18,660 nt of DNA, taken from a virus. Lineage: Duplodnaviria; Heunggongvirae; Uroviricota; Caudoviricetes. Below, one piece after another: positions 1,003 through 18,660 of the stretch. Each line of letters opens with the position of its first letter. Positions within the stretch are counted from its first letter, which is position 1. The DNA lies in IMG/VR virus record IMGVR_UViG_2648501500_000009; one strand, 5' to 3'. A program made the position numbers and the translations under genes. The notes beneath the pieces are model-generated. The model was not told the DNA's origin and searched no databases. It saw only the letters and a program-made list of their open reading frames with translations.

Positions 1003-1343
1003 CAGTTCACCACCTGCTCAATCGTACAGCTGAAATCACTGTACCGGGCATTATCCGTGACACTCCACTCACGGCACACAACCCTCACCGTCCGGTTATG
1101 TTTCGGCGGTCGCCACAAAAAGGCACGGTAACCACCATGCCACGATAAAAACTCTTCCAGCCAGCGCCGGGTTGACTCATCCGTCACCCGGAACACCGCC
1201 TGAAACGTCTTCAGTTGAGGATTCAGCCCTGTGGGGCGGCGCTGTTCATAACCGTCACCAAACCGCACCCTCACCACCGACGGCTTCTCACTCACCTGCA
1301 TCCCTTCACGCGGGACCAGATGCAGCGTTTTTATCTCAGCCAC
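1002..1343 (-). CDS. M: Minor tail protein M
   Basis: 113 aa, positioned between tape measure and L as in lambda; start overlaps the 3' end of H. Confidence 0.85.
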   Translation of the reverse strand: MAEIKTLHLVPREGMQVSEKPSVVRVRFGDGYEQRRPTGLNPQLKTFQAVFRVTDESTRRWLEEFLSWHGGYRAFLWRPPKHNRTVRVVCREWSVTDNARYSDFSCTIEQVVN

Positions 1344-4300
1344 TCAGCATTCCTCCGTCACGTCGCATGGACAGCATCACCGCCTGCACCCGCTGGTCAA
1401 TCAGCTGCACAAGACTGCCTGCCGCCTCCGGCCCTATCTGGCCATTAGTCCCGTCATTCTGAATGGCGATATGGTAGACCGGGGAATACACCAGACCCGC
1501 ACTGCCGTTCATACTACCCACCGCGCGCACACCCAGCGAGCCATCCGCCGCCCGCGTCAGAGGCATAATGGCTTCAGGTCCGGCCTCCCCCATCAGCCCG
1601 GCCCCTTTTGCAAAGGCAAAGTACGTGGGCGTATCCACAATACTGTTGCTGTACGCACTCAGGTTTGCCGAGGTATACACGCCGCCTTTTGCATTGGCCA
1701 CCGCTCCGCCCAGCCAGTCACCAATGCTGCCGAGAAATCCTCCCGCACCGGACATACCGTTTGCCGCCGTCTTAATTCCGTTGACAATCGCGGCATTCAT
1801 AAGAACTTTTGATATTTCCTGCAGCACTGATGAGGCCCAGCTGCGCCATTCCACTTTATTTCCGTTCAGCATCTCCGTGATGTTATTCACCATCCCTGAG
1901 ATACCCTCCGTCGCAAGCTGTGCTGCCTGTGAGGCGTAATCGGACGCATTATCCACCCAGTTACTGAATCCCTCCTGCAGCCCTTTCTGCCAGTCCGCAC
2001 GCTGCGCATCCGATTCGGCATAAAAGGCTTCCTGCTCTTTCAGACGTTCACTCAGATACTGTGCATTCTGCGCCAGAGCCTGTCTGTAAAAATCCTCACT
2101 GATATCCCCGGTCTGATACTGAGACTGAAGGTCCGCATCCTTCTGGCGGAAGCTGTCGCGGATCTGCTGCAACTCCCGCATGCGTTCTCTGGCTCGTTCC
2201 CCCTGCCCGTACCCCAGCAGTTCAGCATCATTCGACGCACGCGCAGCCGCATTCTCATTCTTCAGTGTCTCTTCCCGGGATCGCAACTGTTCCCGGATTT
2301 TTTGCTGGTCAATCAGGGCCGCATTACGCAGCAGCTCCTGCTTCTGCATCTCCGTCAGGGTTTTCAGTTCGCCCTGCGCAGTCTGGTATTTCAGCTTCGC
2401 CAGCTCTGTATTCTGCCCCACCAGTGCCAGTTGCTCTTTCTGCTGCTTCAGCAGCCGGGAAAAACTGTCTTCCGCTTTTTCCGTCTCTGATTTTCCACCC
2501 CGGGATTTGGGTTTATTCGCCTCGTTATTGCGCCAGGCTTCCAGGGCATTACTGATATAACGTTGTCTCGCCTCCTGATACGGATCACCCACAAAACCGA
2601 GGTCATCCGCCGCATACCCCAGCCGGACACGCTCTTTTTCTTCCCCTTTCAGTCTGGACAGGGCCAGCTCACGCTCTGTTTTTGTCAGGGCACTCTGCTG
2701 TTTATCATCCAGGGTGGCCTGTGGCAGCCGTAACGGCACATTCACCAGTCCCTGCCGCTGCTGAAGCAGTTCATTCCCCAGCCCCAGCAGACGGTTAAAT
2801 TCCGTATGCTGAACATTCATCTGCAGCAATGCCTGGTATGCTCTGTTCTGCTCTGCTGCCTCCTCGCGTATCCTCGCCACACGGTTGTATTCCAGTGACG
2901 CCAGAGCTTCCTGTACAGACTTCGCCTTTTCCTGCATCTGTGTCAGTCGTGACTGTTCAACCGCCAGTTTGCCAGTTGCCTCCGCAAGGCCGTGGGTTAT
3001 AATCTCCACACCTGAACCACCCTGTGGATTTTCCTGCAGCCAGCGCTGATAGTCAGCAATCTGTGTTTTCAGTCCCCGGACTTTACTTTCCTGCTCAGCA
3101 ATCAGACGATTCTGCTCTTCCAGTGCCTCGCGAGTTTTACCCTCATTATCAGCCAGTTCCGGAAGGGTCATTCCCGGTACCTTTGCCCGGATTTCATCAA
3201 TCGTCGATGCATACTGACGGGCGGACTCCCTGGCCTGTTCCTGATTCTGGTACACCGTGTACCAGGCACCGGCTCCCAGCATCAGTAAACCGGGTATCCC
3301 GCCGACAAGCGAAAGCAGGGATGCCGCGCCACTTTTCAGCATTCCCGTAACCGACGTGGCATTCTCCAGCGCCTTCCTCGAGGCCGCCACCGCCTGATTC
3401 GACTGTACCAGTGCGGCATTGGCCACAATCATGGCCCGGCGTTTTGCGACGGCATTCTGTGTGGCCAGCGCCTCCGCACTGCTATTTCTGGCCAGTGCAA
3501 GTTCAGCCTGTGCCAGTTGCCAGGCACGTTCTGCCGCCAGCGCGTCAGCTGCCGCCTTACGCTGCACCTGAACAGCCGCATCTGCCTGTGCGGCTGCAAG
3601 GGCAACCGTCCCGGACTTCGCCGCGATCAGCTCTGTGGTGGCCTTTCCCACGCCTGCGGCCATATTGCCAAAGTACCGGGCCACCCCGACGGCAACCAGC
3701 GCCCCCGCGGCTGTTGCCACATTATCAATATTACCGGCAACACCGTTCAGCACGCCGGAGAGCGTTTTCGTCGCTCCGCTGGCTTCATTCGCGCCACCCA
3801 CCCAGGCCATAAAGGCGTTTTCCACCTTTGTGATCCCGTCAGAGACCGTTTCCGGCATGGCGGCATATTCATCACGCAATACCCCCAGCTGGCTGATTAA
3901 CGCAGGAACGACTTTATCCGCCGTCAGTTTGCCGTCGTCCGCCATCGCCTTAAGGTCTTTACGGGCCACGCCCATACCCGCAGCCAGTGCACGTATGATC
4001 CGGTCTCCGCTTTCATTGACCGAATTAAATTCCTCACCCCGTAACACACCCTGTGCCAGCGCCTGGCTGAACTGGGTGATCACCGAGCCCGCCTCTGCCG
4101 TACTGGCACCGGATATTTTCAGCCCTGTCGAAATGGCCTCCGTCACCTTCAGTACATCACCGGCACTGTAACCATATTCACGCATTGAGGCAGCCGAACG
4201 GGCAAACAGGGCCGCATTATCCGAAAATGCCGTGCCTGTCCGCTGGCTGATATCCATCAGCACTTTCTGTGATGACGAAAATTCATCAGATGACTGCGAC

Positions 4301-4602
4301 GCCTGTTTCAGACGGGCATTCACGGAACTCCACTCATCAGCCAGTGAAATCAGGTGTCCGGTGGCAAAGGCACCGGCAAATGCGCCAGCCATTCCGACAG
4401 CAGAACCGCGAATTTCCGTCAACTGGCTGTTCAGTTCTGCCAGGGCACGTCGCTGCTCCCGGGCTGCCGCAGCGGCCTGACGCCCGCCATTCTGCAGGGT
4501 CCGGTAATATTCACTGCCCATACGGGACGCCCGCTGGATCTCCGACTGGAATGACTGTGAATTTGCCGAAATTTTGATAATCAGTTCACGTAACGTCGCC
4601 AT
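1336..4602 (-). CDS. H: Tail tape measure protein (lambda gpH family), 1088 aa
   Basis: Long Ala/Gln/Glu-rich coiled-coil protein; C-terminus IAIQNDGTNGQIGPEAAG...MRRDGGMLSG matches the lambda gpH C-terminus (NNDGTNGQIGP...MRDGGLFSGGGR); RBS GGAGAAAGG upstream of ATG at 4602. Confidence 0.9.
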   Translation of the reverse strand: MATLRELIIKISANSQSFQSEIQRASRMGSEYYRTLQNGGRQAAAAAREQRRALAELNSQLTEIRGSAVGMAGAFAGAFATGHLISLADEWSSVNARLKQASQSSDEFSSSQKVLMDISQRTGTAFSDNAALFARSAASMREYGYSAGDVLKVTEAISTGLKISGASTAEAGSVITQFSQALAQGVLRGEEFNSVNESGDRIIRALAAGMGVARKDLKAMADDGKLTADKVVPALISQLGVLRDEYAAMPETVSDGITKVENAFMAWVGGANEASGATKTLSGVLNGVAGNIDNVATAAGALVAVGVARYFGNMAAGVGKATTELIAAKSGTVALAAAQADAAVQVQRKAAADALAAERAWQLAQAELALARNSSAEALATQNAVAKRRAMIVANAALVQSNQAVAASRKALENATSVTGMLKSGAASLLSLVGGIPGLLMLGAGAWYTVYQNQEQARESARQYASTIDEIRAKVPGMTLPELADNEGKTREALEEQNRLIAEQESKVRGLKTQIADYQRWLQENPQGGSGVEIITHGLAEATGKLAVEQSRLTQMQEKAKSVQEALASLEYNRVARIREEAAEQNRAYQALLQMNVQHTEFNRLLGLGNELLQQRQGLVNVPLRLPQATLDDKQQSALTKTERELALSRLKGEEKERVRLGYAADDLGFVGDPYQEARQRYISNALEAWRNNEANKPKSRGGKSETEKAEDSFSRLLKQQKEQLALVGQNTELAKLKYQTAQGELKTLTEMQKQELLRNAALIDQQKIREQLRSREETLKNENAAARASNDAELLGYGQGERARERMRELQQIRDSFRQKDADLQSQYQTGDISEDFYRQALAQNAQYLSERLKEQEAFYAESDAQRADWQKGLQEGFSNWVDNASDYASQAAQLATEGISGMVNNITEMLNGNKVEWRSWASSVLQEISKVLMNAAIVNGIKTAANGMSGAGGFLGSIGDWLGGAVANAKGGVYTSANLSAYSNSIVDTPTYFAFAKGAGLMGEAGPEAIMPLTRAADGSLGVRAVGSMNGSAGLVYSPVYHIAIQNDGTNGQIGPEAAGSLVQLIDQRVQAVMLSMRRDGGMLSG

Positions 4603-4616
4603 TCACCTTTCTCCGG

Positions 4617-4644
4617 GCAAAAAAAACCTGCCACAGCAGGTTTT
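4617..4644 (-). terminator. Intrinsic-terminator-like hairpin between T frame and H
   Basis: Minus strand AAAACCTGC-TGTG-GCAGGTTTT followed by a T run (plus strand A8 at 4619-4626); sits between the T-frame stop (4654) and the H RBS. Confidence 0.5.
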
Positions 4645-4653
4645 CATCATTAT

Positions 4654-4967
4654 TTATGACATTGCTGCAAGGCTCAGCGCGTCTTCCAGCGCCGCAAACG
4701 GATCCACCTCCGGCTTATCCTCATCCTCGCCCCAGCAGAGCATGGCGTCCTTCAGTGCAACATTCATCCCCTGTGCCCCGAAAACCGCTTTCACGATCTG
4801 TGCATTACGGATATCCCCGCGCTCATCACCCAGCGGGGATACCCTGTCGAACTCCATCCACATCATCGCCTCGCTCGCACTCAGGCTGTGCCGCAGTTCG
4901 GATAAGGTGCGCCCCAGACGGAGCGCAAGTCGCATCAGAAAGCGAATTTCCGGGCGGGCTACTTTTT
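4654..4967 (-). CDS. T: T portion of tail assembly chaperone fusion G-T, reached by -1 frameshift from G
   Basis: The -1 frame opens at the slippery site at the end of G and runs K-K-V-A-R-P-E-I-R-F-L-M-R-L-A-L-R-L-G... to the stop at 4654; position immediately upstream of the tape measure matches the lambda G/GT arrangement. Confidence 0.7.
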
Positions 4968-5333
4968 TCTGGCCGACTCTGCATCAGCGATCAGTTCCAG
5001 TGCCTGACGCAGCAACCGGGCATGTACCGGACCATAGACGGCCAGCACCTGCTCACGGTCGTCCGGAGTGAACACCCGTTGCAGGTCAGTATCACACAGG
5101 ACATCGCAGAACAGCGTCACATCCGCTTCCAGGTTACGGCGGGTTTTCGCCACCACCGACAGGGTATCGTCATCCTCTCCATCACCATTGAGCACTTCCT
5201 GCCACAGATACCAGGCCTCTGCCGAAGGCTCCCGCAGCACCACGCTGACATTTCTCCATTCCGGCACCTTCACCGTTTTATGACGGAACCCCGACAGTCT
5301 GGCCAGCGCCAGTGTTTTCAGATCTTTTGCCAT
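4959..5333 (-). CDS. G: Tail assembly chaperone G (124 aa, acidic)
   Basis: Position between major tail gene and tape measure; acidic small protein ending in the slippery site; start overlaps the V stop region. Confidence 0.75.
   Translation of the reverse strand: MAKDLKTLALARLSGFRHKTVKVPEWRNVSVVLREPSAEAWYLWQEVLNGDGEDDDTLSVVAKTRRNLEADVTLFCDVLCDTDLQRVFTPDDREQVLAVYGPVHARLLRQALELIADAESARKK
4962..4968 (-). promoter_or_regulatory. Programmed -1 ribosomal frameshift slippery heptamer A_AAA_AAG (G to G-T)
   Basis: The last codons of G read AGA AAA AAG TAG on the minus strand, giving X XXY YYZ = A AAA AAG (the dnaX-type slip site); the -1 frame continues open into T. Confidence 0.7.
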
Positions 5334-5338
5334 AAGCC

Positions 5339-6055
5339 TTATCCGCCCGCACCATTAACCGTTACTGTACACGCATCAGAGGTAATGCTCTGCGGCTGTT
5401 CTGCAGAATCCGTTACCTCGCAGGTATAAGCCCCCTTATCACCTGACTGCGTATTGGCTTTACTGAAAGTGTCAGTAGTCTGTCCCTCTACCGGCTGACC
5501 ATCCTTCTTCCAGGCGTGTTTATAAGGCGGCGTTCCCCCGTTGACACTGACTGACATTGTCAGCAGCGCACCGGTATTCACGGTAAGTGTCTTCTCCAGA
5601 TTTTTCACAAACGCCAGCGGTACCACATAGGACACCGGTTTACCCTTCAGGCGAAGTGAAAACGTTGCAGCCACCACGCCGTTGGTACCGGATGACCAGG
5701 TGTGCTGACGCACTTCCGCCAGGAACTTAAAGCCCTTACCGGACGGAAACTGCACCTTAAACGCATACACCGTGTCATTGTCATAGGCATCACGCAGGGC
5801 GTTCTGGGCCTGATTCAGATAAAAATTACCCGACATGGAAATCTCGGACGACGCCCCCAGACCGTTGATGTTCTCCTGCTCTGTGGAGCAGAGCGTGGTC
5901 ACATCAATATCCTGTTTCTGACCGGCGGTGAACTGGACTTCCTTGATGGTGCAGTCCAGGCGCAGATATTCCGCCTTATCCATAGTTTCAGCAGTCGCCG
6001 GGGCAGATGAAATCATCACCTGCGTCAGCTGTGAGCGTTCATACAAAGCAGACAT
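5339..6055 (-). CDS. V: Major tail protein V with C-terminal Ig-like domain (238 aa from the RBS-supported ATG)
   Basis: AGGAGG-containing RBS (tcaggaggcagaATG) precedes MSALYERSQ...; the ORF-track start at 6124 is a GTG extension that runs through a terminator hairpin. C-terminal ~80 aa (PPYKHAWKKDGQPV...GAYTCEVTDSA) has an I-set Ig-like signature as on lambda gpV. Confidence 0.8.
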   Translation of the reverse strand: MSALYERSQLTQVMISSAPATAETMDKAEYLRLDCTIKEVQFTAGQKQDIDVTTLCSTEQENINGLGASSEISMSGNFYLNQAQNALRDAYDNDTVYAFKVQFPSGKGFKFLAEVRQHTWSSGTNGVVAATFSLRLKGKPVSYVVPLAFVKNLEKTLTVNTGALLTMSVSVNGGTPPYKHAWKKDGQPVEGQTTDTFSKANTQSGDKGAYTCEVTDSAEQPQSITSDACTVTVNGAGG

Positions 6056-6068
6056 TCTGCCTCCTGAT

Positions 6069-6093
6069 AATAAAAAACCCGCACGCGGCGGGG
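6069..6093 (-). terminator. Intrinsic-terminator-like hairpin just upstream of V RBS
   Basis: Minus strand CCCGC-CGCGT-GCGGG followed by TTTTTTATT, located between the stop of the upstream gene (6121) and the V start. Confidence 0.5.
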
Positions 6094-6120
6094 TATGGGT
6101 TTTGTAGAAAAAAGAAAAAG

Positions 6121-6465
6121 TCACACCGTGACCTGAAACTCCAGGGTTGCACGGTAACAGCGGTTTTCCGGAATATAGTCCTGCATTTCACTGACGGATC
6201 CCGGGGCCAGCAGCATTATGGCTTCACGGGCGTCCTGACGTATCTGACGCGCCTGCGTCACAGTCCCGGCATAAACGTCTATCTGCACCGACACTGAGGA
6301 CTCCGCCTGCCCGCCCATCACGTCCGCCGACACCGATGAAATCAGGCTGAAAACCACCCACGGAAGCGCCACCGACGGCCTGCCATCCAGCAGGGGGACC
6401 ACATACGGGTACACCTGCCCGCCGGCAAGATGCGCCAGATGAGGATACAAATCCGCCTCCGTCAT
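6121..6465 (-). CDS. Tail terminator / tail completion-like protein (positional analogue of lambda gpU)
   Basis: 114 aa, immediately upstream of the major tail gene and translationally coupled (start overlaps the preceding stop); family assignment (DUF3168-like) is from general resemblance only. Confidence 0.55.
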   Translation of the reverse strand: MTEADLYPHLAHLAGGQVYPYVVPLLDGRPSVALPWVVFSLISSVSADVMGGQAESSVSVQIDVYAGTVTQARQIRQDAREAIMLLAPGSVSEMQDYIPENRCYRATLEFQVTV

Positions 6466-6908
6466 CGTCTCAGTACCTCATCAATGGCCCGGTTCATCCG
6501 AGCAATCGCCACCTGAGCTGCCTGTTCACTGCGCACATCAAATGCCGGGCGCACAAACGGGTGCGGTGGCATATTCACGGTCCCCATTTCCACAAACCGC
6601 CAGTAGAAAGCATTGCGCGGGTTATCCGCCTTCATGGTGTTATCGCTGTTACCGGTGTCCGGATTAACACCCCGGATATGCACACCGGATTCCATCCCGC
6701 CATCGCGGGAGCACCGGGAAAGGACCACCACATTGCGGCGCAGTTTTCCCCTGCGTACCGGTGCCCGTGACACCACTTCTTCTTTCAGCACATTCGCACC
6801 CGCACGGGTTGCCTCACGCAGCACCCGGTTATTTTCCGCACCACTCAGAAGCTGCAAATCGCGGCTGATGTCCTCCAGCCCCGAAAAATCCAGCAGGGTT
6901 TCGATCAT
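6462..6908 (-). CDS. HK97 gp10-family neck/tail component protein
   Basis: 148 aa; segment FYWRFVEMGT...HPFVRPAF resembles the conserved core of HK97-gp10-family proteins; position in the connector gene block. Confidence 0.65.
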   Translation of the reverse strand: MIETLLDFSGLEDISRDLQLLSGAENNRVLREATRAGANVLKEEVVSRAPVRRGKLRRNVVVLSRCSRDGGMESGVHIRGVNPDTGNSDNTMKADNPRNAFYWRFVEMGTVNMPPHPFVRPAFDVRSEQAAQVAIARMNRAIDEVLRR

Positions 6909-7255
6909 TTTTCCCCTCCCAGCCGACAGAGAATTTCCAGACGCCCGCCGGTCGCATCCGGCACGGGCAGCCCGACAACGTTCAGGATCCGGTCACGCCA
7001 TGGACCACTCAGCACATGAAGTCGTGACGCTGCCGTGATTTCCCGGCCGGACTGACCGCGCACCCAGATGCGGATTTCCGCCTGCGCCATTTCCGCACCG
7101 GACTGCATCCGCTCCCGGCTGCTCCTGCCACGGATATCCGCATGAATTTTCCCGCATGACACCCATTCTTCCGTCATTTCTCCGGCAGCATTACGGGTTA
7201 ACACCGGGTTCAGAACACTTATCATCTGTGTCAGACGACCTGCAGATATTGCCAT
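6905..7255 (-). CDS. Head-tail adaptor / head closure protein (SPP1 gp16 / HK97 gp7-like)
   Basis: 116 aa, position after the gp6-like connector; size and pattern typical of head closure proteins. Confidence 0.6.
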   Translation of the reverse strand: MAISAGRLTQMISVLNPVLTRNAAGEMTEEWVSCGKIHADIRGRSSRERMQSGAEMAQAEIRIWVRGQSGREITAASRLHVLSGPWRDRILNVVGLPVPDATGGRLEILCRLGGEK

Positions 7256-7265
7256 TCCTCCCTCC

Positions 7266-7592
7266 TCATAACACCGTCGGACAACGCAAATCGTAAATCA
7301 GCACGGACACAGAAAACGGCAGTTCCCCCTGCACGAGGTCTTCCCGCTCAGCAAGATCCGGATTCCGGTACAGCATCCCGGTCAGTCGCATGGCAGCCCC
7401 CTTCATCCGGGTTAATGCCTCGCCCGGGATCAGCTCACCGTCCTCACGAATCACTTTATCCCGGCTGCCCTGAATGTAGGCCAGCAGCACGGCGGTAGCC
7501 TGACGAACCTTGTCCATCAGCATGTCATCATCCGCGTCATGGTCAACACGCAGATGTGCCTTGATCTCTTCCAGTGTCAGTAATGCCGTCAT
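7266..7592 (-). CDS. Head-tail connector protein (HK97 gp6-like)
   Basis: 108 aa; N-terminus MTALLTLEEIKAHLRVDHDADDDML resembles the gp6-like connector family signature (L-x-E-x-K-x-H-L-R-V-D); start overlaps the stop of the upstream gene (ATGA). Confidence 0.7.
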   Translation of the reverse strand: MTALLTLEEIKAHLRVDHDADDDMLMDKVRQATAVLLAYIQGSRDKVIREDGELIPGEALTRMKGAAMRLTGMLYRNPDLAEREDLVQGELPFSVSVLIYDLRCPTVL

Positions 7593-15475: not shown

Positions 15476-15808
15476 TCAGGGTGCAGAAGGACTAAAGATA
15501 AACGTTTTCTTCACGCCTTTACACGGCCTGTCCTTCTCAAATCGCCATTTTGCCATCGCCTTTACAACCTGCTCATCAAACAGATGGTGCGGCTCTGAAC
15601 GAATAAACTCAATTCGGGTGACAGTACCATCAGCACCAATATCAAACCTCACATCAACCCGTCCCTTTATATAATTTGCCGCTGCATAGGCCGGATATTG
15701 TGGTAATGCCTTAACCAACTGTCGGGGCATATCTGTTTTATGTTGCGTACAGCCCATAACCAGAGAAGACAACAAAATAATTAACGGAAGATTTCTTTTC
15801 ATTTTCAT
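15476..15808 (-). CDS. Lipoprotein with TonB C-terminal-domain-like fold (moron candidate)
   Basis: Signal peptide plus lipobox-like LVMGC; YPAYAAANYIKGRVDVRFDIGADGTVTRIEFIRSEP...AMAKWRF matches the TonB-C pattern (YP..A...G.V.V.F.I...G.V). ATG starts at MKMKRNL preferred over the upstream GTG of the ORF track. Own promoter-like elements upstream; flanked by non-coding DNA. Confidence 0.65.
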   Translation of the reverse strand: MKMKRNLPLIILLSSLVMGCTQHKTDMPRQLVKALPQYPAYAAANYIKGRVDVRFDIGADGTVTRIEFIRSEPHHLFDEQVVKAMAKWRFEKDRPCKGVKKTFIFSPSAP

Positions 15809-16140
15809 TCCCCGCACAGATAAAAATAAGTCTTATTCTAACAATGCCGCCCTGTCGGTCATCAATCCTCTGCTTAATGGCAACGACAATTATCCGACTT
15901 AAATCACAAATCAGACACATGACATAACAGGGCTTGCGAGGTAACACATCGTCCTGTTTCTTCCACCATCGCACCGGACTGGCGACTATGAGGGGACAAC
16001 GCCGCGCTCCGTTAACGCGGTAAACCCCGGTGTGTATCGTTTTTGATTATCCCCGCACACTCGCGCAGAGGAGTCTCCCTGTCGGGCTGCGGTCTCTGTT
16101 AATGAGGGAATACAGCGACGATACGGCGCATCAACAAAAC

Positions 16141-16608
16141 TTATTTCAGGCACTGAGTACGGATATATTCCTGCGCCCCTTCCAGCTGCTTCTGCATTGT
16201 CATCAACCGTTCTCTGAGGATGAAATAATCCCGTTCAGCGGTGTCTGCCAGTCGGGGGCCGGTTGCATTATCCACGCCGGAGGTGCCGGTGGCTTCACGC
16301 ACGGTACCGGAGCAGGTGGCGTTGATCCGCAGGCGCTTACGACCAGCGGCAACATCAGCACGCAGAGTTTCATTTTCAGCTCTCGCATCGGCTAATTCCC
16401 TCGAGTATTTTGCATCGAGCGCAGCAACATCGCGCTGGCGCACCTGCATATCAGTAATGGTTGCGTTCGCCAGCTTCAGTTCACTGGCTTTTTTATCGCG
16501 CTGCGCTTTGTAAGTGATGGCGTTATCGCGGTAATGATTCAGCCCCAGACTAAGCGCACCACAGGCCACCAGCAGAGCAATGATGACCACACACAGAACG
16601 CGGTTCAT
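16141..16608 (-). CDS. Rz: Rz i-spanin (155 aa from MNRVLCVV)
   Basis: Near-colinear with lambda Rz ([16 protein letters not shown]...[15 protein letters not shown]...[30 protein letters not shown]); the ORF-track N-terminal extension is rejected. Confidence 0.9.
16203..16388 (-). CDS. Rz1: Rz1 o-spanin lipoprotein, embedded in the +1 frame of Rz
   Basis: [22 protein letters not shown]...[27 protein letters not shown] closely matches lambda Rz1 (lipobox plus Pro-rich periplasmic segment); entirely inside Rz. Confidence 0.85.
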
Positions 16609-16707
16609 TTCACCACCAACGGATTGCCCAGACCAGAACAGCAATGGCCACAATACGAATGGCAAATGCCATTGCCCGAATAAGTTCAGCACTCATCTTT
16701 TTAAAGT

Positions 16708-16830
16708 TCACGATTTCAGCGCAATGACCAGTTTTGCCAGCCCATATAGCATCGGAGACACAGCAATACCAACAGCCACCCACTTAATAGCAAAAGCCAG
16801 CGCTCTGCTGATGTCATCAGTCACTGTCAC
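16708..16830 (-). CDS. Candidate small hydrophobic peptide ORF-c (40 aa, GTG start overlapping ORF-b stop as GTGA)
   Basis: VTVTDDISRALAFAIKWVAVGIAVSPMLYGLAKLVIALKS; frame open from further upstream (90-codon ORF in track); real start uncertain. Confidence 0.25.
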   Translation of the reverse strand: MTVTDDISRALAFAIKWVAVGIAVSPMLYGLAKLVIALKS

Positions 16831-16958
16831 CCCAGCAGCCCCGACGAAGACAACATCACCCAGGCGAGGGACAGAAAAAGAGCAACCAGCATTAGTGAAA
16901 ATGAAATACCGACAATCACACAGAGGACCTTTGCCGGCGTTATGAGTTTGTCTGACAT
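16827..16958 (-). CDS. Candidate small membrane peptide ORF-b (43 aa)
   Basis: MSDKLITPAKVLCVIVGISFSLMLVALFLSLAWVMLSSSGLLG; ATG 2 nt after the ORF-a stop (TAGctATG); one predicted TM helix; below the 60-aa cutoff of the ORF track. Confidence 0.35.
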   Translation of the reverse strand: MSDKLITPAKVLCVIVGISFSLMLVALFLSLAWVMLSSSGLLG

Positions 16959-16960
16959 AG

Positions 16961-17056
16961 CTACCCCTTAATTGCCACAATTAACTGGGATACTACCCAT
17001 AAAAAAGGGATGCTCCAGACCAGCAAAAATTTCCAGTTTGGTAATTGACTAATCAT
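16961..17056 (-). CDS. Candidate small membrane peptide ORF-a (31 aa)
   Basis: MISQLPNWKFLLVWSIPFLWVVSQLIVAIKG; ATG preceded by GGGAG 9 nt upstream; the longer GTG-initiated ORF in the track runs through the terminator hairpin and is rejected. Confidence 0.3.
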   Translation of the reverse strand: MISQLPNWKFLLVWSIPFLWVVSQLIVAIKG

Positions 17057-17121
17057 GAGTCGCAACTCCCTAATCAGTTTGCTAAAATCAATCAAGGCAG
17101 CCTCCCATAGCTTACTGCCAT

Positions 17122-17174
17122 AAAAACAAAACCCCGCTTGCTGCCAACAAACGGGGTTTTTACTTTTATTCACT
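17122..17174. terminator. Bidirectional intrinsic-terminator-like hairpin just downstream of the endolysin gene
   Basis: ACCCCGCTTG-ctgcca-CAAACGGGGT (9-bp stem, one mismatch) flanked by an A run on the left and TTTTTACTTTTATT on the right, so a U-tract follows the stem on either strand. Confidence 0.6.
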
Positions 17175-17250
17175 TACGTTTCGCCAGTTCGCAGGATTTC
17201 GTGTTATCCGCCCGCGTGGCCATGCCTTATTTTTCAGCAAAATATTCTGC

Positions 17251-17784
17251 TTATCTGTCGATACCCCAGCACGCCAGCGCGCTCTCCTGGTCACGACGGG
17301 ATACCTGACCGTAGCAGTTGTTTGAACGAATACGGCAGTCTCTGCCACCGTCCTTAATCCACCAGCGAATCGCCTCACACGCTCCCCTGCGATCACCTGC
17401 ATTAATTCGTCTGTAAAACGTCGACGGGAAACACTTACCGGGACCAATGTTGTACGGACAGAATGACGCGATCCCCGCTTTCTGGGGTTCGGTCAGTGGC
17501 ACTTTGATGTTTTTCTCCACCCATGCCAGCGCCTTATCACGTTCAATGGCGTTAACCTGGTCGCATTTTTCCTTCGACAACTTCATGCCCGGGAGGACAG
17601 GCTTACCATCCACCCGGGTGGCACCGCGACAGATGGTCCAGATACCCGCGCCATCACGGTATGCCGTGGTGTGGTTACCTTCCTTTTCATCCAGAAACTG
17701 GTCGAGGATTTCAGGCGCAGGCGCACCTGCGGCAATCAGCGCCAGAACGGCAGCCGACAGGCCGTATTTGATTTTTGCGTTCAT
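17251..17784 (-). CDS. R: SAR endolysin, phage-21 R-type lysozyme (GH24 / T4-lysozyme fold), 177 aa
   Basis: N-terminal Gly/Ala-rich weakly hydrophobic segment (YGLSAAVLALIAAGAPAPEIL) typical of signal-anchor-release domains; catalytic E-x8-D-x5-T triad (EGNHTTAYRDGAGIWT); C-terminal region similar to R21 as recalled. Confidence 0.85.
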   Translation of the reverse strand: MNAKIKYGLSAAVLALIAAGAPAPEILDQFLDEKEGNHTTAYRDGAGIWTICRGATRVDGKPVLPGMKLSKEKCDQVNAIERDKALAWVEKNIKVPLTEPQKAGIASFCPYNIGPGKCFPSTFYRRINAGDRRGACEAIRWWIKDGGRDCRIRSNNCYGQVSRRDQESALACWGIDR

Positions 17785-17834
17785 GGATATTTATCAGGAT
17801 TTATCGATTTCAAATCCCTGGATATGTTAAGTCT

Positions 17835-18182
17835 TCAGGCCAGCGGTGGAGTCTTCAGAGAACCAGTAATTATTCCCGGTAGTTTTCCTCTGTAGGTTAT
17901 CAACACATCCTGCGCCTCTAAAATGATGGGCCGCTTTTCCGGCAACGGACCATCCCCTTCACATAACCCGGCAGCAACATCCATGAAAAACTGCTTCGCC
18001 TGCTTTTTCGCCTCAGCTTCGTAAAACTCCAGCGTGGCACCTTCAGTACGGTCAAGACTAATCGCCACATATGGCAACAACAGTGACGGATACCCACCAA
18101 TTTCCAGTGCCACAGTAACAGTAATCTTATCCGGGTAATTATTTATCCCTTTAACAACCAGTTCGTATTTTTTATTCATCAC
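17835..18182 (-). CDS. Hypothetical protein embedded between holin and endolysin (115 aa); positional analogue of ydfR-type genes in E. coli prophage lysis cassettes
   Basis: ATG 2 nt downstream of the holin stop; soluble-looking, acidic; no family recognised with confidence. Confidence 0.6.
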   Translation of the reverse strand: MMNKKYELVVKGINNYPDKITVTVALEIGGYPSLLLPYVAISLDRTEGATLEFYEAEAKKQAKQFFMDVAAGLCEGDGPLPEKRPIILEAQDVLITYRGKLPGIITGSLKTPPLA

Positions 18183-18183
18183 T

Positions 18184-18399
18184 TTACTCTCCCCGCGCCG
18201 CCTTACGCCGGTCCTCTCTGATTTTGAAATACAGGTTAGTCAGATACGTCAGCAGGCCAAACAGCAGACTCCCCAGCACACCTATCGCCACCCACTGGGA
18301 CGGAGAGACTTTGTCCAGCAGCTGCAGTAACCAGTATCCCGTCCCCACCGCTGACGTGGTGTATGACACACCCGTTGTGATTTTTTCCATCTGGTACAT
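18184..18399 (-). CDS. S: Pinholin, phage 21 S-type, 71 aa with dual-start motif (MYQMEK)
   Basis: [71 protein letters not shown] is colinear with S21 (two TM domains, basic C-terminus, Met1/Met4 starts). The 35-codon upstream extension in the ORF track is rejected. Confidence 0.85.
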
Positions 18400-18430
18400 A
18401 CCCCGTCTCCCGTTATCCGGAAGCTGACAA

Positions 18431-18463
18431 CAATAAAAAAGCCACCAGTTAACTACTGATGGC
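18431..18463 (-). terminator. tR'-like intrinsic terminator immediately upstream of the holin gene
   Basis: Minus strand GCCATCAG-tagttaa-CTGGTGGC (8-bp stem with one G.U pair) followed by TTTTTTATTG; in lambdoid phages the Q-dependent late terminator tR' occupies this position. Confidence 0.6.
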
Positions 18464-18548
18464 TCTGATAACTCATGCAGGCGTCTCAGACGACCCACTG
18501 ACACTACCGGTGAGTTTAACGATACCTTCCATTTGACTGGCTCACTTT

Positions 18549-18660
18549 TTATGATGATGCCGGTGCATTTATCTCCAGCACCAGACTTTCTATCTCAACG
18601 CCATACGCTGCATTTTTTGTAACATCCGTCAGCGTCAGCGCATTCAGTCCCAGTGTCAGA
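18549..18660 (-). CDS. 3' end (last 36 codons) of an upstream gene entering from the right edge; possibly the late antiterminator Q
   Basis: Open minus-strand frame from the window edge: ...[40 protein letters not shown] (TAA at 18549-18551). Identity inferred only from position upstream of tR' and the lysis genes. Confidence 0.35.

Follow-up and report, generated by a model that had tools for sequence, protein, structure and literature searches.

The late genes of the lambdoid phages lambda, 21 and 82 are served by one late promoter, an early terminator (tR' in lambda) and the protein Q (Q-lambda, Q21, Q82), and read-through of downstream terminators by the Q-modified polymerase is established for all three. 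Terminators located inside a late operon were already described for HK97 and HK022 in 2000, and the GenBank record of HK97 (NC_002167; Juhala et al. 2000) holds seven "putative terminator" features in the late operon, at 3309-3335, 5192-5213, 6692-6719, 7443-7462, 8398-8422, 13799-13824 and 15107-15129. The sequence considered here is a stretch of 18,660 nucleotides (hereafter the window) of the Caudoviricetes virus record IMGVR_UViG_2648501500_000009, which is 96-99.8% identical to lambdoid Shiga toxin (Stx)-converting phages and to E. coli prophages, and in which the late genes are all on the minus strand. Five hairpins followed by U-tracts (T1 to T5) stand at junctions of these late genes. 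We consider it fairly probable that they are Rho-independent terminators, which would stop polymerase lacking Q in the lysogen and would be read through by Q-modified polymerase after induction. The window thus adds further cases to those of HK97 and HK022, and since the concept dates from the genome paper of these two phages, the understanding of such operons is unchanged.

Hairpin coordinates are written from high to low, i.e. 5' to 3' on the minus (late) strand. The five hairpins named on this strand by an initial annotation of the sequence were all recovered, each as a G+C-rich stem with a U-tract, at positions within 0-14 nt of those first given (the upper bound of T2 was the most displaced, 17174 against 17160), and the gene contexts assigned to them (esterase|holin, after the lysozyme gene, TerL|capsid, tail terminator|major tail, and T|tape measure) match the annotation of a 99.8%-identical genome by the Prokaryotic Genome Annotation Pipeline (PGAP). 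Stems are 5-15 bp long with loops of 3-5 nt, folding energies run from -7.5 to -25 kcal/mol, and the U-tract is directly 3' of the stem; in T1, T3, T4 and T5, 6-8 U are found in the first 8-9 nt after the G+C core (tail scores of 4.9-5.6). Stability, which the initial annotation had proposed as a check, was confirmed for T1, T2, T3 and T5 (z-scores of -2.1 to -4.8), T4 being weak (z = -1.15).

A strict scan, defined by a compact hairpin of -7.5 kcal/mol or lower and, counted from the G+C core, a tail score of 3.5 or more, returned 8 sense-strand and 3 antisense matches in the window, the sense matches comparing with 0.27 +/- 0.49 expected from 100 dinucleotide-preserving shuffles. Intergenic DNA makes up 1918 of the 18660 nt; when shuffling was confined to these AT-richer segments, 6 matches were observed for 0.15 +/- 0.40 expected, and none of 200 shuffles reached 6. 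With a lenient scan the enrichment was mild (27 sites vs 18.1 +/- 4.4). The placement of T1-T5 is thus non-random and far above chance. An Rfam scan of the window (E <= 1) returned a spurious snoRNA match only, and no known RNA family at T1-T5. RNase III sites, nut/put sites and repetitive extragenic palindromic (REP) elements were rejected on anatomy (short stems, U-tract directly after the stem, no boxB-type loop).

T3 (12172-12199, minus strand; hairpin 12199-12182) is a 7-bp hairpin (GAACCGC/GCGGUUU) followed by U7, with a folding energy of -10.2 to -10.7 kcal/mol (z = -3.0), placed between the stop of TerL (12224) and the start of the capsid-protease gene (12160). Its stem is invariant in 82 close relatives, in which the loop alone varies. 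A distant set was obtained by a portal-protein scan keeping one genome per species, which gave 13 Enterobacterales prophages (Kosakonia, Pantoea, Phytobacter, Atlantibacter, Citrobacter, Erwinia, Enterobacter, Buttiauxella and others) whose TerL and capsid proteins share 59-83% and 67-76% amino acid identity, respectively, with those of the window. In all 13, ACCCGC-N4-GCGGGU with a U-tract behind it stands 24-25 nt from the start of the capsid gene, and this hairpin is kept while the spacer has diverged in its 5' half. The AACCGC/GCGGUU of the window differs from the ACCCGC/GCGGGU of these relatives by one compensatory A-U to C-G change. No T3-like element was found in alphaproteobacterial relatives (spacers of 4-40 nt), leaving aside Chelativorans L282 (185-nt spacer), on which the terminator scanner was not run.

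T1 (18431-18466, minus strand; hairpin 18466-18438) is a 12-bp hairpin of -16.4 to -17 kcal/mol (z = -4.1) whose tail directly after the stem reads UUUAUUG; it lies about 85 nt past the stop of the nanS-p (SASA esterase) gene and 38 nt ahead of the holin ATG (18399). A hairpin with a U-rich tract precedes the holin gene in all 67 IMG/VR relatives examined; at least 6 distinct stems occur among them, and the DNA upstream varies (two types of esterase C-terminus, or a truncated esterase remnant), the homology of the window with many phages breaking at the 5' edge of T1 (18468). Covariation was measured on an alignment of 16 distinct variants, with controls in which the pairing partners were slid by 1-3 columns: 95.9% of the cells were paired (26-71% in the controls), 5 of 11 pairs had changed on both sides (0-1 in the controls), and the covariation score was equalled in 0 of 500 shuffles. 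Several of the pairs are mostly G.U on the late strand, corresponding to C.A on the other strand, which indicates that the constraint acts on the late-sense RNA. A reading of T1 as a displaced tR' was found unsupported: in L183, a relative with no esterase gene upstream of T1, a truncated esterase remnant and not Q stands there.

T4 (6068-6103, minus strand; hairpin 6092-6078, extended fold 6103-6074), between the stop of the tail terminator gene (6121) and the ATG of the major tail gene (6055), consists of a 5-bp all-G/C stem followed by U6, with an energy of -7.5 to -8.5 kcal/mol, or -9.3 kcal/mol for the extended fold. The stem is kept in 79 of 80 close-relative loci, and the site is visibly homologous to the putative terminator of HK97 at U|V (6692-6719), the common pattern being AACCCGCC..GGCGGGUU, a U-tract, then CAGGAG.CAG..ATGTCTGC. 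A second, weak hairpin (T4', 6118-6134, minus strand, -6.3 kcal/mol) spans the stop codon of the tail terminator gene and has a U/C-rich tract after it; it is possibly a tandem partner of T4, and its z-score of -1.45 is not significant alone.

T5 (4619-4645, minus strand; hairpin 4645-4622), a 10-bp hairpin in a run of 8 U (-10.7 to -12.5 kcal/mol, z = -2.1), is located between the stop of T (4654) and the ATG of the tape measure gene (4602), and the site has two unrelated stem alleles (CCUGC/GCAGG and ACCGC/GCGGU) among 77 relatives. In 4 of these 77 (within L004-L083), an insert of about 490 nt with a lipoprotein-like open reading frame (ORF) is found between T and a T5-type hairpin, in a spacer of 540 nt; the ORF encodes a protein of about 137 amino acids with the lipoprotein signal MKKLMPLIFSAVFFLTGC... 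and had no match in a Pfam search. Morons carry their own promoter and terminator, and gene 15 of HK97, the founding moron, is flanked by the genes for tail chaperone and tape measure (PMC3594210), i.e. it lies at exactly the T|H junction occupied by T5, with a terminator after it at 8398-8422. In the 4 relatives the inserted gene likewise has its own terminator, the T5-type hairpin that closes it, although its product is unrelated to gp15; in the window the T|H spacer is 51 nt long and holds the terminator only, without a moron ORF or a promoter. T5 thus reads as the terminator of an unoccupied moron site and, as far as the sequences tell, it is, or derives from, the 3' end of a moron cassette. 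The suggestion that the hairpins insulate morons fits this junction.

T2 (17118-17160, minus strand; hairpin 17160-17128) is the strongest fold, a 15-bp hairpin of -20 to -25 kcal/mol (z = -4.8) with the U-tract UUUUGUUUUU, about 90 nt past the lysozyme stop (17251). It had been called bidirectional, and the plus strand does fold (-13.6 to -15.3 kcal/mol, with a T-rich tail), but no convergent plus-strand gene ends there. The hairpin is kept in most of 80 relatives, with a sequence so nearly invariant that covariation is uninformative; some relatives carry an alternative hairpin at the site (GGCACC..GGTGCC), and one has at this position a classical R-Rz overlap with no spacer. T2 marks a junction of the mosaic type, since the modules that begin just downstream of it in relatives are of at least 4 different kinds, and it is, or derives from, probably, the 3' end of a moron cassette. 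In the window, some 640 nt between the lysozyme gene and the Rz-like gene (16609-17250, minus strand) replace the usual R-Rz overlap and hold T2 and several tiny ORFs; relatives have different genes there (e.g. an antirepressor in Stx2_EH1910), which makes it a variable accessory slot in the lysis cassette.

Comparable motifs recur in the distant set at the other tail junctions. In the 8 distant loci for which the downstream ORF was identified, a strong terminator precedes the tail tube gene by 20-23 nt, with at least 5 different stems, and it persists where the tube protein belongs to PF16460, a family different from that of V in the window; further terminators precede chaperone and tape measure genes (PF16462, PF09718). 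Over the 186 kb of this set, strong matches number 43 in sense and 12 in antisense orientation. Measured from the G+C core, the next start codon is a median of 24 nt away (interquartile range 22-25), the distance being 15-35 nt at 35 of 39 sites; many of these 39 are orthologous copies of T3.

HK97 has the same kind of motif, on the same strand and in the same operon, and shares two junctions with the window, tail terminator|major tail (T4) and the one before the tape measure gene (T5); its terminators, like those of the window, are predictions. T3 has no equivalent in HK97, since the genes there run in the order TerL-portal-protease-capsid, and a scan of the strict type found strong terminators after its Q and Rz genes and none immediately before its holin gene, while the window lacks the sites that HK97 has after its capsid and tube genes. 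In lambda, sense terminator motifs of the late region were found at D|E (6097-6118, before the major capsid gene E), at J|lom and after lom. T1-T5 are internal sites and differ in this from tR' of lambda. In near-identical prophages, further sense terminators are present at I|J, at J|lom and after lom, and about 410 nt downstream of the stop of the gene in the Q position a candidate tR' was found (33044-33019 in L003, the 99.8%-identical genome CAU16175; late-sense, weak at -7.7 kcal/mol). About 5 kb of accessory genes separate Q from T1 and the holin gene: a methyltransferase gene, two tRNA genes, a DUF3927 gene, iraM on the opposite strand, and the esterase gene.

In the lysogen, polymerase without Q could enter the late genes by leaking through tR', from promoters of morons or accessory genes (esterase, tRNA genes, inserted genes) or from stray promoters. 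At each site the hairpin of the nascent RNA would form at the U-tract and the transcript would be released, so that the lysis genes (T1, T2) and the structural genes (T3-T5) would stay silent and the accessory units confined, T1 in particular shielding the lysis genes. After induction, Q would load onto polymerase at pR', and the modified polymerase would resist hairpin-dependent termination and pass all sites, giving one long late transcript. While the motifs, their non-random placement and their conservation are observed in the window and its relatives, we infer termination and its suppression from the established biology of Q.

Several observations weigh against this account. Q, pR' and tR' are outside the window, and the gene that follows rusA in prophages 98-99.8% identical to it is annotated DUF1133 (E = 6e-103), its additional match to PF06530 Phage_antitermQ (the Q21 family) being near threshold (28.4 bits for a cutoff of 26); a PDB sequence search with the protein in the Q position gave no match to a solved structure. 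The Term-seq study of enterohaemorrhagic E. coli Sakai (GSE143631, PMC7547250) reports only tR', and no literature was found on direct termination or read-through at internal late-operon sites. The lambda scan gave no site at the U|V or T|H junctions, which indicates that a lambdoid late operon can do without them, and the energy z-score of T4 is the weakest of the five sites. T3 and T4 stand ahead of the genes for the two most abundant virion proteins, which is not expected of a pure insulator, and the spacing, fixed at about 24 nt, goes beyond what an insulator would need and hints at an extra function. The initial interpretation, Q-type antitermination through terminators that may also set expression levels or protect morons, is therefore supported in part: canonical, conserved late-strand motifs do lie inside what must be one long late unit, and near-identical prophages carry a Q21-like candidate gene in the Q position and a candidate tR', but the setting of expression levels does not fit T3 and T4.

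The last two of these observations lend themselves to a different explanation, in which the hairpin and U-tract units would be chiefly RNA elements of the read-through transcript, stabilising 5' or 3' ends after endonucleolytic processing, or providing in the U-rich tract a loading or enhancer site for the ribosome (protein S1) before the Shine-Dalgarno sequence and so raising the output of protein from the genes for capsid, tube and tape measure. For E. coli, U-rich enhancers ahead of the Shine-Dalgarno sequence are established, the same arrangement also occurs in lambda in front of gene E, the core-to-start spacing is tight, and termination before the most abundant virion proteins would be counterproductive. 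Set against this, the motifs are textbook terminators in which the U-tract adjoins the stem; the presence of orthologous T3 copies among the 39 sites makes the tight spacing partly a matter of shared ancestry and genome compaction; T1 (38 nt) and T2 (no start codon nearby) are outside the spacing pattern; and the same motif closes moron cassettes, where termination is required. We regard this explanation as unlikely. The two functions could also be combined in dual-purpose modules, acting as terminators in the lysogen and, in the Q-antiterminated transcript, as elements at a fixed distance (about 22-25 nt) that stabilise the cistrons of capsid, tail tube and tape measure or raise their translation; such modules would explain both the closeness to the next ribosome-binding site and the retention before the most abundant proteins, and are held here as a tentative proposal with a rather low likelihood.

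The hairpins might also be evolutionary leftovers with no selected transcriptional role here, either scars of moron insertion and deletion or patches promoting recombination at module boundaries, as the end of homology at the edge of T1, the start of at least 4 different modules right after T2, and the position of T5, which ends an inserted gene in 4 relatives and stands alone in the window, would suggest. The compensatory changes in T1, the retention of T3 across about 30-40% protein divergence while its flanking spacer diverges, and the independent stem sequences at the same junctions point instead to selection on structure and not to neutral remnants, and T3 and T4 are not at junctions of variable content; judged by these comparisons, the structures of T1-T5 are under selection, and a neutral origin appears very unlikely. 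The possibility that the sites are partial attenuators in lytic growth, where incomplete antitermination by Q would produce a descending gradient of expression along the operon, is related to the suggestion of the initial annotation that they set relative expression levels. T5 would suit such a role, being located between the high-copy tube and chaperone genes and the low-copy tape measure gene (the tube protein is needed in far more copies than the tape measure protein), and HK97 and distant relatives also have terminators just past the tube gene. The order is the opposite at T3 and T4, where low-copy proteins (terminase, tail terminator) are encoded before the site and the most abundant ones after it, and Q-modified polymerase is highly resistant to terminators; a gradient of this kind is the least probable of the explanations considered. 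We retain, at the strength given at the outset, the reading of T1-T5 as terminators that would act in the absence of Q.

The esterase|holin spacer that holds T1 is also known for small RNAs (sRNAs). PasA and PasC are Hfq-bound sRNAs encoded between the esterase and holin genes, and PasB is encoded within the tail operon (Pearl Mizrahi et al. 2021; Zhu, Shabalina & Storz 2026 preprint); all three are listed as antisense to phage genes ("> < >") in Table S6 of Pearl Mizrahi et al. (2021). They belong to the same prophage family, occupy the same intergenic spacers (esterase|holin for PasA/PasC, I|J for PasB) and end in intrinsic terminators, but they are antisense to the late operon, whereas T1 is late-sense and about 85 nt away from the esterase stop. 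In E2348/69, PasA and PasC adjoin the esterase stop on the opposite strand, and a separate late-sense hairpin is found about 58 nt before the holin gene. T1 as the terminator of a PasA/PasC sRNA was rejected on these grounds: because the Pas loci are antisense and separate, T1 is the positional equivalent of the sense hairpin of E2348/69, and its alignment with the PasA and PasC loci of that strain showed no similarity at T1.

A plus-strand hairpin at 18509-18546 (GGTGAG...CTCAC then TTTTTAT) adjoins the esterase stop codon (18550-18552); it has the position and orientation of the PasA/PasC terminators of E2348/69, and a sequence that is not alignable to PasA or PasC. An antisense sRNA of the PasA/PasC kind could end at this hairpin, with a promoter overlapping the DNA of T1; this is a separate possibility, which we graded jointly with the dual-purpose modules described above and consider doubtful. 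PasB maps to the I|J spacer, outside the window. In that spacer of L003, just beyond coordinate 1 of the window, a strong terminator (5732-5763, -23.3 kcal/mol, plus strand of the locus and antisense to the late genes) sits where E2348/69 has PasB, and its sequence is unlike the PasB probe.

The gene map was based on the PGAP annotation of near-identical genomes and on the list of ORFs, and is given here in the order of late transcription, by descending coordinates, all genes being on the minus strand except where indicated. The 3' end of the nanS-p-type SASA esterase gene (stop at about 18550) is followed by the lysis region, with genes for a class II holin (18184-18399), YdfR/DUF1327 (17835-18179) and the lysozyme (17251-17784), then small ORFs and the Rz-like lysis gene (16141 to about 16608). 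Next come a TonB-like gene (15476 to about 15802), YlcI/YnfO on the plus strand (15144-15344), an HNH endonuclease gene (14737-15102), TerS (13882-14445), TerL (12224-13885), and the gene for the S78 protease-capsid fusion of 645 amino acids (10223-12160). The head and tail genes are those of the portal (8647-10011), a 353-amino-acid ORF overlapping it (7589-8650), four head-tail genes (6121-7592, ending with the tail terminator gene), the major tail protein V (5339-6055), G (4959-5333), T (4654-4935), the tape measure protein H (1336-4602), M (1002-1343), L (304-1002) and the start of K (up to 293). Three further motifs are located on the minus strand of this map: a well-formed 8-bp hairpin with U5 behind it (-11.8 to -13.7 kcal/mol) within the coding region of M (1112-1141; hairpin 1141-1122), which is also present in L002 and L003 and whose membership in the set of terminators is uncertain; a motif inside H (2624-2595); and an imperfect hairpin upstream of TerS (14586-14555). 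All three, like T4', are absent from the initial annotation.

The portal region (7589-10011, minus strand) is labelled by PGAP as a "frameshifted" portal pseudogene. The portal ORF of 454 amino acids holds a complete Phage_portal domain and the overlapping 353-amino-acid ORF has none; the layout in two ORFs, with the change of frame at the same point, is kept in relatives (L249-L287) down to about 47% identity. The region thus probably consists of two real genes, or uses a programmed shift, rather than being a pseudogene. In CAU16175, one copy of ISEc22, an element of the IS66 family, separates the major tail gene from G (L003 12420-14755) and a second copy interrupts J; because of these insertions that prophage is defective, while the copy in the window is uninterrupted at the V|G junction.

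The practical value of the five sites is modest: they are landmarks for the annotation of late operons and of moron insertion points, and specific positions at which Term-seq data already available can be inspected. In pathogenic E. coli, the lambdoid prophage family of which the region is part carries Shiga toxin and many accessory genes. If the reading of T1-T5 as terminators is true, internal terminators would help to explain how lysogens tolerate constitutive accessory genes and sRNAs beside lethal lysis genes, and why the expression of the toxin and late genes depends so completely on Q.

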